DNA from: Caldisericaceae bacterium
GTDB lineage: Bacteria; Caldisericota; Caldisericia; Caldisericales; Caldisericaceae
Length of the DNA stretch: 24,554 bases
NCBI GenBank assembly: GCA_027076005.1
Contig: JALTHX010000150.1
Location: forward strand, 1-24,554
Direction: 5' to 3'
Each line of letters begins with the position of its first letter. Positions within the stretch are counted from its first letter, which is position 1. The position numbers and the translations under genes were made by a program. Shown piece after piece: positions 14,238-19,939 of this stretch. Under the pieces are notes generated by a model. That model made no database searches. It was not told the DNA's origin and saw only the letters and a list, made by a program, of their open reading frames with translations.

Positions 14238-15173
14238 TTATCGGCCTCCTAAAATAATTAATCCTATTATACAGGACACTACTGTTATGATGAAAAACCG
14301 GAAATCGATTTTTGTTTCACTCCATCCGGAGAGCTCGAAATGGTGGTGGATTGGTGCCATTTTAAAAATACGCTTACCATGCGTAATCTTAAAATAAGAA
14401 ACTTGTAGCATCACGGATATGGTTTCTACAATAGGGACAAAAGCAAAAAACGCAAGTAAAAGTTCAAATTTGCCCAATACGCTAATCGCCCCAACCAGCC
14501 CGCCTATGGCAAGAGAGCCCGTATCACCCATAAAAATGGAGGCTTTGGGGCTGTTAAACCAAAGATAGGCAAGCAGCGCTCCAAACATTATCAAAGAAAC
14601 GTCTTTGATTAAAACGCTTCCGATAATTGCAAAAGAAAGGAAAATGGGTAAAGAAACGACCGTAGAAAGTCCGTCTATTCCATCAGTAAGATTGAAAGCA
14701 TTTACTGACCCCACCATTATAAATAGAAATAACAAAAAATATCCAATAGCTCCTGCATCTATCACGAAATTATTAATAATAATATTTTTTGTTATAAAAG
14801 GCTTCCCTATTAAATACAGAATGACTGCAGCAAGAAATTGTAAAATAAGTTTCTCGCGTGCAGAAAGCCCAAGGGACTCTCTTTTTTTAATGCTTATAAA
14901 GTCATCGGCAAAACCAATCAATCCATTTAGTAAAAGTGCAAAATACAGAAATAAAAACCGCCTACCGTGCAAAAAAGGAATAAAAATAAGTGGCACAAGC
15001 AAAAAAACAATGCCACCCCCTGTTGGCGTCCCAATTTTTTTAAAATGAGATTTAGGCCCGTCTTCCCTTATATTCTGAGTAATTCTATCTTTCCTTAAGA
15101 AAGGAATCAAAATTAGAAAAGAAACAAAAGCAATAATAAACGAAAAAATAGCATACCACAGTTCTTTGCTCAT
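14238..15173 (-). CDS. mraY: Phospho-MurNAc-pentapeptide transferase MraY
   Basis: IREDGPKSH.KK.GTPTGGG, IGFADD, NAFNLTDGIDGL, IFMGDTGSLAIG, MAPIHHHFELSGWSE. Confidence 0.97.
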   Translation of the reverse strand: MSKELWYAIFSFIIAFVSFLILIPFLRKDRITQNIREDGPKSHFKKIGTPTGGGIVFLLVPLIFIPFLHGRRFLFLYFALLLNGLIGFADDFISIKKRESLGLSAREKLILQFLAAVILYLIGKPFITKNIIINNFVIDAGAIGYFLLFLFIMVGSVNAFNLTDGIDGLSTVVSLPIFLSFAIIGSVLIKDVSLIMFGALLAYLWFNSPKASIFMGDTGSLAIGGLVGAISVLGKFELLLAFFAFVPIVETISVMLQVSYFKITHGKRIFKMAPIHHHFELSGWSETKIDFRFFIITVVSCIIGLIILGGR

Positions 15174-16552
15174 CTTTTAAACCTCTCCTTTATAACTTTT
15201 ACTGCATCTTCCATATGCATTCCTCTGGACCCTTTGACAAATATAGCAGAAGAAGGAGGTATATCAAGCTTATCTTTCAAAAAATCAAGCAGGTCCCCTT
15301 TCTTAGGAAGATAAAAAACGTTTTTTACACCATTTTCATAAAGTGTTTCTATTGTAAACTTTGAATATTTTCCAACTGCTAAAACAAAGCTCGGATTAAA
15401 ACTCGCTATTATTTTTCCTATTTTTCTATGAGCATTTTCAGACTGTTCCCCCAACTCAAGCATATCGCCCAACAAAATAAACAAACGGTTTCTATGATTC
15501 TTAAACCTGCTTAAGGAATATTCCAGAGAAATTGGGTTAGAGTTATATGTTTCATCAATTAAAATTCTGTCTTCGGAAAGTTTTATTTCACTTCCTCTAC
15601 CGTTTACGGGGGTAAATTTAAGAAGTGCGTTTATTGATTTTTTTAGTGAAATGTTGTTAGTGAAACCGATTGCGATTGCAGCCAGAAGGTCATATACAAA
15701 ATTAACTCCGGAAAATGGAAACCTCGCAGGATAGCTACCTTTGTTTGTCCATATTTCAAGCTCCATGCTGTCAGCATTGATGCTTTTAATTTTAGCAGAA
15801 ACTGCGTTATGCCTGCTCAAACCAAAGGATATATAATTATTTTTAAGCTCTTTCAAAAGTATCTTAAAATATGCATCATTTCCATTTAAAATATTAATAC
15901 CTCTTTTGCTATCTACGAACTTAGCCAATTTAAATTTCTCATTTGCAACATTTTCAACGCTTCCCAAGTATTCAATGTGTGACATGCCTGCATTTAAAAG
16001 TATTGCAGAATCAGGATTCACTATCTCATTTAAAGTGTCCATATCTCCCGTCTTCTGGATTCCCATCTCTACAATATGGAATGCACTTTTAAGATCCGCA
16101 TCATTTAAGAAAAACAACGGTATTGAAAGCTCGGTATTTGCATTTCCTGCTGTTTTGGAAATCGGAAAACGACTATCCAACACGAGGGAAACCATTTCTT
16201 TCGTAGTAGTTTTTCCGGCACTGCCAGTTATTCCAATAACTTTTCCTTTTAATTTATTCCTTGCGTATTTTCCAAGATTAAACAACGCTTTTTGTACCGA
16301 ATTAGTTTGCAAAATAAGGAAATCTTTTTTTATAAAAGAGGTTTTTTCTTCAACTACTGCACCTATCGCACCATTTTTATATGCGTCTTCCAAGAATAAA
16401 TGCCCATCAATTTGCTTGCCTTTAATTGCAAAGAACAAAGAGCCTTCTCTCGCTTTTCTACTATCTATGGCAAAGCTCGTAAAGCCATCTATTTTTACTT
16501 TATTCCAATCTCCTTGCACAATATTAAGCAGTTCGTCAGTTTTTATTTTCAT
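15170..16552 (-). CDS. murF: D-Ala-D-Ala-adding ligase MurF
   Basis: IDSRK..G.LFFAIKG..DGH, GITGSAGKTTTKE, DETYNSNP, LGDMLELGE, VKGSRGMHME. ATG 16552 or TTG 16555. Confidence 0.96.
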   Translation of the reverse strand: MKIKTDELLNIVQGDWNKVKIDGFTSFAIDSRKAREGSLFFAIKGKQIDGHLFLEDAYKNGAIGAVVEEKTSFIKKDFLILQTNSVQKALFNLGKYARNKLKGKVIGITGSAGKTTTKEMVSLVLDSRFPISKTAGNANTELSIPLFFLNDADLKSAFHIVEMGIQKTGDMDTLNEIVNPDSAILLNAGMSHIEYLGSVENVANEKFKLAKFVDSKRGINILNGNDAYFKILLKELKNNYISFGLSRHNAVSAKIKSINADSMELEIWTNKGSYPARFPFSGVNFVYDLLAAIAIGFTNNISLKKSINALLKFTPVNGRGSEIKLSEDRILIDETYNSNPISLEYSLSRFKNHRNRLFILLGDMLELGEQSENAHRKIGKIIASFNPSFVLAVGKYSKFTIETLYENGVKNVFYLPKKGDLLDFLKDKLDIPPSSAIFVKGSRGMHMEDAVKVIKERFKR

Positions 16553-17981
16553 CAAGTATCTCCCTTACGCACTCCTCATCACTTTTCATAACAGTTTTGT
16601 TTCTAAAATGAATTTCTCTTTCTTCGCCTCTACCTAAGATTGCCACTACATCCCCCTTCTTCATTATAGAAACTGCTTTTCTAATTGCATTAAAACGGTT
16701 ATTTATTACTACAATATTACCGGAAGAGCCCTTTTTAACATCCCGTATTATTTCATCAGGATCAGCCCCCCTCGGGTCATCAGTTGTTAATATAAAAACA
16801 TCACTTAATGAAGAAGCGACTTTTCCGATATTGTACCGTTTCTCTACTGTAGACCATCCTACTGCGCCAACCACTGTAATAAGTCTATTCTGTTTAATTT
16901 GACGTGCATAATTCAGCACAGCTTCTATTTCATACGGATTATGCGCAAAATCAATAATTACAGTGCCCTTAATAGTTTCTATGGAATTCATTCTTCCGGG
17001 AATCTCCGGGAGATTCGCTGCAAATTGTTCAATTTTGGAAAGAGGTATTCCTTCTCCTTTGGTAAAGGCCAGAAACGCAAGAAAATTATAAAGGTTAAAT
17101 TCGCCTCTTGCTTTGAGAAATAAACGAACATAATCTTTGTCATACGAAAGCGTAACATACATTCCACTATGATCTGTTTTATCAATATGGGCCATAAAAT
17201 CTGCTTTATTTTTAATTCCATATGTTTTGAATGTCCGGGAAACAGACAAAAAATCTTCTATAAAAAGTGAGTCCCTATTAAGGATAGCAGGAACGTCCCC
17301 TTCAAAAAATTTTAATTTACAACTAAGATAATTTTGAAATGTTTTGTGCACTTCAAGGTGGTCCTGGCCAATATTGGTTAATATTTTTCTGTAAAAATCT
17401 ATTCCGCTTATTCTATTAAAAAGTATAGCTGATGAGGAAACTTCCATAAATACATATTTAATACCTGCTTTTACCATATCACTGAGTGCCCTGTTCAGGT
17501 AAAATGCGTCTGGTGTAGTAGGAGGAAATTTTTCCTTAAATATAAGTCCGCTGCCTGTATCTTCTCCAAGCGTACCTAAAAATCCGGCTCTAATACCAAC
17601 CCTGTTAAAAAAAGAATAGAGTATATAAGCAGTAGTTGTTTTTCCCGAAGTACCGGTTATTCCCACAACTTTCAATTTTCTGGAGGGAAAACCAAAAAAT
17701 GCAGCTGAAATTCTTGCGTACGCATCTCTCGAATCAGAAACCTTTATCAAAAGAATATTCTTAGGCACTGTAATATCTTTTTCCGAAACCACTACAGTGG
17801 CCCCGTTATGTATAGCCTCTAAAATTCTTTTATGGGAATCAAAGTGTATTCCCTTCATTGCAACAAAGAGATCAAATTTCTGAATCTTTCTCGAATCAAG
17901 TTCAATGCGATTAAACTCAACATTTAAATTACCTGAATACGAAAATCCCGGAAATAGTATCTTTAGCTCAGTGGCTTTCAT
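16536..17981 (-). CDS. murE: Diamino-acid-adding ligase MurE (atypical specificity motifs)
   Basis: LDSRKI, GITGTSGKTTT, TTP, MEVSS, TNIGQDHLEVH, PGRM, IIDFAHNP, TTDDPRG; position between ftsI and murF. Confidence 0.94.
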   Translation of the reverse strand: MKATELKILFPGFSYSGNLNVEFNRIELDSRKIQKFDLFVAMKGIHFDSHKRILEAIHNGATVVVSEKDITVPKNILLIKVSDSRDAYARISAAFFGFPSRKLKVVGITGTSGKTTTAYILYSFFNRVGIRAGFLGTLGEDTGSGLIFKEKFPPTTPDAFYLNRALSDMVKAGIKYVFMEVSSSAILFNRISGIDFYRKILTNIGQDHLEVHKTFQNYLSCKLKFFEGDVPAILNRDSLFIEDFLSVSRTFKTYGIKNKADFMAHIDKTDHSGMYVTLSYDKDYVRLFLKARGEFNLYNFLAFLAFTKGEGIPLSKIEQFAANLPEIPGRMNSIETIKGTVIIDFAHNPYEIEAVLNYARQIKQNRLITVVGAVGWSTVEKRYNIGKVASSLSDVFILTTDDPRGADPDEIIRDVKKGSSGNIVVINNRFNAIRKAVSIMKKGDVVAILGRGEEREIHFRNKTVMKSDEECVREILDENKN

Positions 17982-19683
17982 CTAAATCATCCTGTGGAAT
18001 CCTTAAATATTTTACTACATAGCTTGCAATTTTTTGAAAGAGTGGCGCAGCAACATATAATGAATAAGTAGGCTTTTCAGTTTCATTTATTACCGTAAGG
18101 ATAACAACTCGGGGATCACTTGCAGGGACCATACCACAAAAACTATAAATGAGCTTTGTATTGGAATATCCGCCGTTTGCATCAGGTTTCTGTGCGGTAC
18201 CGGTCTTCCCTGCAACAGTATAACCCTTAAGCTCAGCCTGCGGAACACCCTTTTCGGTAACAACTGCTTTTAAAGCATCCATTACTTCAGAAGCAACTTT
18301 AGGAGAAACAACGCTCTTCCGAATTGTAGGCGCATTATAGTATTTAACATTGCCGTTCATATCTTTTATTTCCTTTACTATAATCGGTTTCATCTCTATT
18401 CCCCTGTTTGCTATTGCACAGAAAGCATCGGCAAGTTGAAGTGGGGTAACTGCTACTCCTTGGCCATAGGACATCGTAGCTAATTCTACATCCCCGACAT
18501 CTTTTGCTTCAGGAACAATGCCCTTTTCTTCACCGGGTAAATTAATACCCGTATATTCACCCAATCCAAACCGACCAAAGTACCTTAAGAGCTGAGTCTT
18601 ACCTAACTTCAATCCAATTTTCATAAAAGCAACATCACAAGAATTCCTCATTATTACATTTAAGCCTTTTTCCTCCCCATGTTTTCTCCAGCAGTGCAAT
18701 ACTCTATCTTTTACTTTGAGCGAACCAGTGCAATAAAATGAATCATCCGTGTGTAATGTTCCCTCCTGTAATGCCGCAGCAGCAATTATTGGCTTTAACA
18801 CGGAGCCTGGTTCATAATTTAATTGTATCGCAAGATTTTTCACGTTATTTGGTGTTATAGAAGAAAGATTATTCGGGTCAAAATCAGGATATGAAGCCAT
18901 CGCAAGCACTTCACCGCTATGAGGATTCATTATAATTACTGTTCCGGATTTTGCTTTGTCTTTAATTACAGCTTCTTTCAGATATTTTTCTGCCATATAC
19001 TGAATATTTTTATCTATTGTAAGTTGCACAGTATCGCCTTTGCGGGGCTTTATTTCAAACATAGAAATGTTTGGGACTATAGGCCTAGGGGATGTTTTTG
19101 GCCAATAGATTTTACCATTCACGCCCTCAAGAAAACCGTTAAACTTGAATTCTATTCCCGATAATCCATTATCATCGTTGCCCACAAATCCAAGCACATT
19201 AGATAAAAGGTTATGAAAGGGATAAATACGTTCTTCCGTTGGGGTAATTGCTATCCCGTTTTTTAAGCCAATGCTTAAAATTTTGTCTTTCTGCTCTGCT
19301 GTAAGTCGTGTAGTTACTCTTACAAAAACATTATGTTTGCCAAGAATTTTCGTCAAAGAATCTTTACTTATATTTATAATTAAAGGAAGTTTGGAAAGCA
19401 AAATTTTCTTATCCGTACTATCCAAATAGGAAGGATTAATATCTAATTCGTAAGAAGGTTTATTTACAGCAATTGCAACACCGTTTCTATCAAGTATGTC
19501 ACCTCTTTCCCCTTTTATTTCAACGACTTCCGGAGAAATCAGGCCCTGAAGTTGTGCCATATAATAGCTTCTATGAAAAACTTGCAAATATAAAAGCCTG
19601 CCAAAAATAATGAGAAAAATAATCAAAAAAATTGTAAATAAAGACAGCAACCTTATTACAAAAGTATCAAGTTTATTTTGCAT
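17968..19683 (-). CDS. ftsI: Class B penicillin-binding protein (FtsI/SpoVD-like), no PASTA domain
   Basis: N-terminal TM, ERGDILDRNG, R.YP, GLSGIE, EPGSVLK (SxxK), NSCD, GKTGTAQK. ATG 19683 preferred over TTG 19689. Confidence 0.93.
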   Translation of the reverse strand: MQNKLDTFVIRLLSLFTIFLIIFLIIFGRLLYLQVFHRSYYMAQLQGLISPEVVEIKGERGDILDRNGVAIAVNKPSYELDINPSYLDSTDKKILLSKLPLIINISKDSLTKILGKHNVFVRVTTRLTAEQKDKILSIGLKNGIAITPTEERIYPFHNLLSNVLGFVGNDDNGLSGIEFKFNGFLEGVNGKIYWPKTSPRPIVPNISMFEIKPRKGDTVQLTIDKNIQYMAEKYLKEAVIKDKAKSGTVIIMNPHSGEVLAMASYPDFDPNNLSSITPNNVKNLAIQLNYEPGSVLKPIIAAAALQEGTLHTDDSFYCTGSLKVKDRVLHCWRKHGEEKGLNVIMRNSCDVAFMKIGLKLGKTQLLRYFGRFGLGEYTGINLPGEEKGIVPEAKDVGDVELATMSYGQGVAVTPLQLADAFCAIANRGIEMKPIIVKEIKDMNGNVKYYNAPTIRKSVVSPKVASEVMDALKAVVTEKGVPQAELKGYTVAGKTGTAQKPDANGGYSNTKLIYSFCGMVPASDPRVVILTVINETEKPTYSLYVAAPLFQKIASYVVKYLRIPQDDLDESH

Positions 19684-19939
19684 TATCAATCTCTACTATA
19701 ATATAAGAATTAGGGGTCAGCATTTTTAATTTGGTATGAGCAATTTCATCAATTTTTGATAAATCTAAAGCATTATAGTACTGAATACTGAGGTTTCTGT
19801 TTTCTGTTCTAACTGCAGTATAATTATTCGTATATAAATCAATTCTTTTTTCAAGAAGCCGCGTTTTAAATCCAAAGATTTCTCCCATAACGAATAGTAA
19901 GAGTAAAAACGAAGCGAGCAAGTACATCCTTTTTTTCAT
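19673..19939 (-). CDS. ftsL: Cell division protein FtsL-like, 88 aa
   Basis: rsmH-[ftsL]-ftsI slot; basic N-terminus, one TM, coiled-coil, LSKIDEIAHTKLKMLTP tail. Confidence 0.8.
   Translation of the reverse strand: MKKRMYLLASFLLLLFVMGEIFGFKTRLLEKRIDLYTNNYTAVRTENRNLSIQYYNALDLSKIDEIAHTKLKMLTPNSYIIVEIDNAK

Follow-up and report, generated by a model that had tools for sequence, protein, structure and literature searches.

A Thermotoga-like MurE in the Caldisericota that is probably not a standard meso-diaminopimelate ligase

The third residue of the peptidoglycan stem peptide sets the cross-linking of the bacterial wall, its recognition by hydrolases and innate immune receptors, and the antibiotics and enzymes that act on it. 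Which residue MurE adds in the Caldisericota is the question raised by a 24,554-nt stretch of DNA from a Caldisericaceae bacterium (contig JALTHX010000150.1 of assembly GCA_027076005.1; the whole stretch is hereafter called the window), which carries a murE gene whose product reads DDPR where meso-diaminopimelate (meso-DAP) ligases read DNPR. No report on the peptidoglycan chemotype of this phylum was found in the literature searched, and the MurEs considered here are currently all annotated as 2,6-diaminopimelate ligase. The original prediction, made from the letters of the window, held that this enzyme is probably not a standard meso-DAP ligase. We reached the same view: the nearest relative of known specificity is the DDPR-bearing MurE of Thermotoga maritima, the gene content of related genomes speaks against a wall in which meso-DAP is obligatory, and Caldisericota probably build their wall with lysine (or ornithine) instead of diaminopimelate. 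The host assembly, 80% complete and spread over 316 contigs (1.57 Mb), is a Caldisericota metagenome-assembled genome (MAG).

We aligned the window's MurE with E. coli MurE from NC_000913 (the literature numbering of the latter is the sequence index minus one) and read invariance from two alignments, A1 and A3. The gene and its relevant positions are as follows.

16536..17981, minus strand: murE coding sequence, 481 aa (P0001), from the open reading frame (ORF) list and its translation
16770..16781, minus strand: DDPR (D401-D402-P403-R404) in place of DNPR (E. coli 413-416), from translation, DNA and alignment
16836..16868, minus strand: loop GAVGWSTVEKR (residues 372-382) in place of GCGGDRDKGKR, from translation and alignment
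16620..16634, minus strand: GRGEE (residues 450-454) in place of GKGHE (E. coli 464-468), from translation and alignment
17634..17654, minus strand: ATP-binding P-loop GTSGKTT (residues 110-116), intact, with G110, T111, G113 and K114 invariant in A1 and A3
17316..17318, minus strand: K222, the carbamylated Lys of Mur ligases, invariant in A1

In E. coli MurE, D413, N414, G464 and E468 bind the D-centre of meso-DAP and R416 contacts both of its carboxylates (PMC9434261, PMC3829189), and R389 engages the added residue through its L-centre carboxylate (PMC9434261). In the window's enzyme the Asn that binds the D-centre is replaced by Asp402, within the full motif TTDDPRG; in the loop, Ser377 stands at the position of Arg389, the second Gly is Val, and no Arg precedes the conserved K381-R382. 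The replacements relative to E. coli are D388W, R389S, D390T, K391V, G392E, N414D, K465R and H467E, whereas D413, P415, R416, G464, G466, E468, K393 and R394 are unchanged, and G450 and E454 (equivalent to G464 and E468) are invariant in the alignment. The first two motifs are exactly those of the original prediction, with DDPR at 16781-16770 in both translation and DNA and the loop at bases 16868-16836. GRGEE is also present in the same gene, but at 16634-16620 it lies outside the interval 16770-16870 to which it had been assigned, and its fourth position is not fixed within the family. That the Arg of GGDRD contacts the ligated residue is also correct; however, the group that it binds, the L-centre carboxylate, is not DAP-specific, and T. 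maritima too has Ser at this position, so the loss of this Arg is no pointer to a novel third residue.

The same three signatures (DDPR, GxVGxS and GRGxE) were found again in the 20 closest homologues aligned, at identities down to 43%; the closest named homologues come from Caldisericaceae and Caldisericum MAGs (48% identity). Because they recur in these homologues and in 14 genomes of 10 genera, the motifs are neither chance nor sequencing error.

The remainder of the protein is that of a regular Mur ligase. It scored 403.1 bits on the TIGR01085 profile (cut-off 257.3) and contains all three Mur ligase Pfam domains (PF01225, PF08245 and PF02875). The Mg-binding E180 and H208, the carbamylated K222 and the ATP-binding N296, N299, R330, D344 and H347 show no or almost no variation in A1 and A3, and the residues that bind UDP-N-acetylmuramic acid (UDP-MurNAc) are invariant in the alignments; the role of the carbamylated Lys in Mur ligases is described in PMC9434261. 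The AlphaFold (AF2) model had a predicted local distance difference test score (pLDDT) of 94.7 and a predicted template modelling score (pTM) of 0.92. These data bear on one explanation of the odd motifs, namely that the protein is degenerate or non-catalytic, like the plant PAP11 MurE-like proteins, and that its motifs arose under relaxed selection. The amino-acid-binding loop is indeed strongly derived, and plant MurE-like proteins scored 208 bits against the window's MurE. Yet the ATP, Mg and UDP-MurNAc residues are invariant, the motifs are kept across 10 genera, and the gene, for which no second MurE homologue was found in the 80% complete assembly, sits in an intact dcw operon with overlapping reading frames, sharing 14 nt at its 5' end with ftsI upstream and 20 nt at its 3' end with murF downstream. 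Since the catalytic residues are invariant and the model is confident, a decayed or non-catalytic MurE is very unlikely. With fold, ATP site, Mg ligands and carbamyl-Lys intact, standard acyl-phosphate chemistry is expected.

When the whole protein was compared with all Protein Data Bank (PDB) sequences, the best match was T. maritima MurE (4BUB, 247.6 bits), followed by the enzymes of Mycobacterium tuberculosis (173.6), Staphylococcus aureus (171.5) and E. coli (161.6). With the C-terminal amino-acid-binding domain alone, 4BUB scored 98.8 bits and all other PDB entries 66 or less, S. aureus being the lowest MurE match at 43 bits. The nearest characterised enzyme is the L-/D-lysine MurE of T. 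maritima. That enzyme carries DDPR, as the original prediction had stated, and the alignment with 4BUB shows it as TTDDPRGEDP; the wall of T. maritima contains L-Lys and D-Lys and is without DAP (PMC9434261, PMC9790342). Like the window's enzyme, 4BUB has TTDDPRGxDP, GRG for GKG and Ser where E. coli has Arg389, and the genomes of both organisms carry a dapF homologue and lysA. The two enzymes are, however, only 33% identical; the T. maritima loop, GAGGNSDRGKR, keeps GG and a nearby Arg, whereas GAVGWSTVEKR has Val for the second Gly and no Arg ahead of K381-R382, and the fourth position of the last motif differs (GRGHE in T. maritima, GRGEE here). The original prediction had also linked DDPR to ornithine-adding spirochaete enzymes, for which no support was found in the literature searched.

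The meso-DAP enzymes of E. coli and M. tuberculosis (1E8C, 2WTZ/2XJA) have the same three-domain fold as the window's MurE (TM 0.86-0.88) and share with it the catalytic residues and D413, R416, G464 and E468; they differ from it by N414D, R389S, the missing GGDRD loop, K465R and H467E, and score about 75 bits below T. maritima. The lysine enzyme of S. aureus (4C12/4C13) is a second point of reference, being also without full DAP recognition and having an acidic pocket that favours lysine (PMC3829189). Its motif is DNPA, and lysine is contacted only by R383, D406 and E460 (PMC3829189). Asp406 and Glu460 correspond to D401 and E454 of the window's enzyme; S. aureus lacks the motif Arg and has the loop Arg R383, whereas the window's MurE shows the opposite pattern. 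On NF010628, the model for Firmicute L-Lys MurE, the window's protein scored 261 bits, below the cut-off of 536, and its motif is DDPR rather than DNPA. A structural search was tried as a discriminator between Lys-type and DAP-type enzymes and discarded: 4BUB was the top structural match to the model (TM 0.89), but all solved MurE structures, of either type, fell within TM 0.86-0.90.

An exhaustive search with the C-terminal domain against 1.84 billion representatives gave, among the best 150 matches, 107 with DNPR, 7 with EDPR, 5 with DDPR and 3 with DDPK; the named proteins with DDPR and GRGHE or DDPK and GRGHE among the nearest C-terminal domains belong to Thermosipho and Kosmotoga (Thermotogota). 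A word-based search with the C-terminal 120 residues returned 17 proteins, with no named DDPR taxa among them. The contig-scan matches listed were mostly Bacteroidota and Clostridia with DNPR, together with one Caldisericum MAG.

We then collected 41 MurE orthologues from 81 genomes of the phylum searched, covering seven families (f1 being the window's family), and read their motifs in the E. coli register; the genes of the families other than f1 are loci L114-L140. By family, the motifs are:

f1 (14 genomes, 10 genera): DDPR; loop G(A/P/V)VGxS; GRG(E/D/H/N/V)E
f7: DDPR; loop GCVGAGDRGK; GRGHE
f4: EDPR; GRGHE
f2 and f6: DDPE (one DDPG); GRGNQ, with Gln at the E468 equivalent
f3: YGVAK, YDDAK or YGLSQ at the DNPR position
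f5: DDS(T/K)(K/E) at the DNPR position; loop SFFEEEDIRE

Motif diversity within the phylum is extreme, and DNPR was found in none of the 41 MurEs. All 14 tabulated f1 members, among them Caldisericum exile (G009), carry DDPR; in this family the fourth position of the last motif varies, but not its GRG or its terminal Glu (E. coli E468). Since DDPR is present in 14/14 f1 members and DNPR in 0/41 MurEs, the odd motifs are a trait of the family and the phylum rather than of one sequence. To judge from its motifs (loop GCVGAGDRGKR, then GRGHE), the f7 enzyme is the most Thermotoga-like, a better match than that of the window's own family. No other MurE homologue was found in one representative genome each of f2, f3, f4, f5 and f7; one f3 genome has a second Mur-ligase match, probably murF, directly downstream of MurE.

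In a maximum-likelihood tree of 65 MurE sequences, the window's family formed a clade (support 100) on a long stem, f7 a second (100) and the Thermotogota a third (89). None of the three falls within the main DNPR clade (82), and their mutual order was not resolved. The apparent affinity to Thermotoga is one of scores, not of a resolved sister relation.

As a separate observation on the same protein, the conserved EVSSHA motif (residues 181-186, window 17454-17444 region) has Ser for His in the window's subclade (EVSSSA), and is SSF or TSH in further genera of f1.

How might such a pocket select its substrate? In the C-terminal pocket, Asp402 stands in for the Asn whose hydrogen bond holds the distal carboxylate of DAP, basic loop residues are lost (R389 to Ser, K391 to Val), and E380 and E453 add acidic residues. 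The pocket is thus more acidic and should prefer diamino acids that lack a second carboxylate, L-lysine being the likeliest on this model; R404, D401 and E454 would hold its alpha-carboxylate and epsilon-ammonium groups, and could hold D-lysine as well, as in T. maritima. Judged from its sequence, the window's MurE is probably not a standard DNPR-type meso-DAP ligase, and the reading that we favour, with belief and doubt about evenly balanced, is that it is a Thermotoga-type ligase that adds lysine, possibly also D-lysine. Because the trait is fixed in f1 and DNPR is absent from all 41 MurEs of the phylum, a Lys-type wall, possibly with both L- and D-Lys, is predicted rather than a DAP-type wall. 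Of the third residues offered by the original prediction (lysine, ornithine or a novel one), lysine, and with less likelihood ornithine, explains the data, whereas a novel residue found no support. The DDPR type itself is already known from T. maritima; what is new here is the further-derived loop, the phylum-wide absence of DNPR in the genomes sampled and an acidified DapF linked to murA, described below.

Several observations weigh against the lysine reading and speak for the main alternative, that MurE still adds meso-DAP in vivo. Arg404, whose E. coli equivalent binds both DAP carboxylates, is kept, along with D401, G450 and E454. On NF001126, the NCBI model for DAP ligases, the protein scored 436.4 bits, above the cut-off of 373, although this pass reflects overall similarity and not specificity. 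T. maritima MurE efficiently adds meso-DAP in vitro (PMC9434261), and its choice in vivo has been ascribed to a low DAP pool (PMC9434261, PMC9790342), so the motifs alone do not decide against DAP. Nor did an A409R mutant of S. aureus MurE gain any DAP activity (PMC3829189), which indicates that the motifs do not fully set the specificity of MurE. In the tree, a sister relation to Thermotogota MurE was not resolved. As to genes, dapA and dapB were not found in the window's MAG, but this MAG is only 80% complete; a same-genus genome (G013) has a full operon, dapF-dapA-dapB-dapD-lysC-lysA, with dapD of the acetyltransferase type, and full DAP operons are also present in G030 and G075. Finally, the near-universal dapF of f1 would supply meso-DAP from LL-DAP, made de novo in genomes with the operon and salvaged in the others: for a DapF that is adjacent to murA and scores well (220 bits), the simplest reading is that it makes meso-DAP for the wall.

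The distribution of the pathway genes bears on this alternative in more than one way (absences hold for the genomes searched and the family profiles used). The genome check called for by the original prediction found, in the window's MAG, the DapF homologue on contig C95 and lysA on contig C197 5921-7090 (locus L008 1435-2607; 369 bits on TIGR01048). No dedicated lysine racemase is named in this MAG (no sequence search for one was made), and its sole Alr-fold racemase scores as alanine racemase. In this lysA, codon 235 is an in-frame TAG (C197 6623-6625); the gene could be a pseudogene, or the stop could reflect strain variation or faulty assembly. It shares only about 49% identity with the intact lysA of the G013 operon. 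Across f1, dapF was found in 22/23 genomes, lysA in only 10/23 and dapB in three of 26 (G013, G030 and G075), the same three being the sole genomes with dapA above the family cut-off; in these, dapA and dapB share one contig with a second dapF and lysA. No asd scored above the cut-off in the five f1 genomes searched. With dapB, dapA and asd matches missing, most f1 members, despite their dapF, have no known source of LL-DAP. The six genomes of genus g4 have no lysA, no dapB and no dapA match at E <= 1e-20, and asd is absent from G005 (99% complete), the sole g4 genome searched for it; yet this genus retains the DDPR-type MurE motifs. In f3, f5 and f7, both dapF and lysA are absent (0/29 genomes, many of them >95% complete). 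Whether or not an f1 member has the DAP operon makes no difference to its MurE motifs. A wall that requires meso-DAP is hard to reconcile with this distribution, whereas a lysine wall, with lysine made or imported, is not. Together with the loss of N414 and R389, the acidified pocket and the altered ligands of the DapF copy described next, this leaves meso-DAP addition a serious alternative to lysine, though one that we consider rather unlikely.

The DapF that is nearly universal in f1 is not the operon copy. It follows directly after murA, overlapping the end of that gene, and wecB usually precedes the pair. In the window's MAG this wecB-murA-dapF cluster (locus L009) lies outside the window:

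contig C95 8645-9910: murA
contig C95 7852-8661: dapF

The murA-dapF arrangement is conserved in four genera; it was seen in this MAG, G013, C. exile and G005 (the same layout in L162, L159 and L160). In Haemophilus influenzae DapF, the distal carboxylate of DAP has N64, N157, N190 and R209 as its ligands, and the distal amine has Q44 and E208 (PMC8225329, citing Pillai 2006). The murA-linked clade has 44 members, of which 42 carry Glu at position 64, 43 carry Glu at position 157, and 43 carry Asp, Ser or Thr at position 44; N190, E208, R209 and the two catalytic Cys are conserved. In the 76 closest homologues outside this clade, by contrast, N/Q is found at 64, N/V at 157 and G at 44, and the Glu/Glu pair occurs in just one of them. 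There is a precedent for such a change: PddB is a DapF homologue that became a 2,4-diaminobutyrate (Dab) racemase independent of pyridoxal 5'-phosphate (PLP) through loss of its carboxylate ligands (PMC8225329). PddB and the murA-linked DapF share the DapF fold, both catalytic Cys and replaced distal-carboxylate ligands. In PddB, however, N64, N157, N190 and R209 are all replaced, whereas the murA-linked protein has only N64E, N157E and Q44D/S/T and still scores as DapF. The possibility that it stands in for glutamate racemase, as in Chlamydia, was considered and dropped: murI is present in 24/25 f1 genomes, so the protein is not needed for that function.

Two readings of the murA-linked DapF remain. 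It may be a genuine DAP epimerase reserved for the wall; that would support the addition of meso-DAP by MurE. Alternatively, it may be a cofactor-independent lysine or ornithine racemase that provides the D-isomer, as found in the Thermotoga wall; the DapF of T. maritima itself has weak lysine racemase activity (PMC9790342). We give some weight to this second reading, because the acidification of DapF parallels that of the MurE pocket. Carried further, Caldisericaceae would have replaced meso-DAP by lysine or ornithine, including the D-isomer, which would come from a cofactor-independent racemase derived from the murA-linked DapF (Q44D, N64E, N157E), standing in place of the PLP racemase of Thermotoga, and would be installed by the DDPR MurE; the phylum, with its DDPR, EDPR, DDPE, YGVAK and DDSxK variants, would then hold several unexplored wall chemotypes. 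This composite proposal is speculative, and we regard it as unlikely.

The precedent of PddB is also relevant to a further alternative to lysine, that the residue joined by MurE is a different diamino acid lacking a distal carboxylate, for example L-ornithine or 2,4-diaminobutyrate. The acidic pocket would accept ornithine too, and S. aureus MurE weakly does so (PMC3829189); C. exile metabolises ornithine through a specific ornithine decarboxylase (PMC8503589), and the lysine racemase of T. maritima acts on ornithine as well (PMC9790342). Among the characterised lysine and meso-DAP MurEs compared, the nearest is nevertheless a lysine ligase, and the DapF copy keeps N190 and R209, unlike the Dab racemase PddB. 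We regard ornithine or Dab as the third residue as improbable.

If lysine is indeed the third residue, the Caldisericota would be the second deep-branching phylum with S-layer homology (SLH) domain envelope proteins, after the Thermotogota, to abandon meso-DAP, and the label of 2,6-diaminopimelate ligase may be wrong for the MurEs of the whole phylum. Their motifs would then form a natural series of MurE pocket variants from which to learn how specificity is encoded, and the murA-linked DapF paralogue is a candidate for either a new cofactor-independent diamino-acid racemase or a wall-dedicated epimerase.

The dcw operon around murE is complete, in the order rsmH, class B penicillin-binding protein (PBP), murE, murF, mraY, murD, ftsW, murG, murC, murB, ddl, a 200-aa ORF, ftsA and ftsZ. 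The 200-aa ORF, at the ftsQ position, had no Pfam match. The immediate neighbours of murE are:

17968..19689, minus strand: class B PBP (FtsI/SpoVD-like), directly upstream of murE, from profile and Pfam matches
15170..16555, minus strand: murF, directly downstream of murE, from the ORF list and profile and Pfam matches

Other features of the envelope were noted in passing. MurT/GatD has been reported for C. exile (PMC11915815), and we located a MurT-like gene in that genome at C1:318125-319357 (L151; 260 bits on NF045635). No such gene was found in the window's MAG, G013, G001 or G008; because it occurs only in C. exile among the genomes checked, isoglutamine amidation is not family-wide. A 445-aa Mur-ligase-like ORF on contig C287 proved to be FolC. 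The presence of YkuD and OmpA-like domains was set aside as evidence, since it does not discriminate between the readings. Lastly, the minus strand of the window at 387-2744 encodes a 785-aa protein with SLH domains and a family-5 solute-binding domain. Anchoring through SLH domains implies that the secondary cell-wall polymer is pyruvylated, like that of Thermotogota and other diderms with SLH domains.

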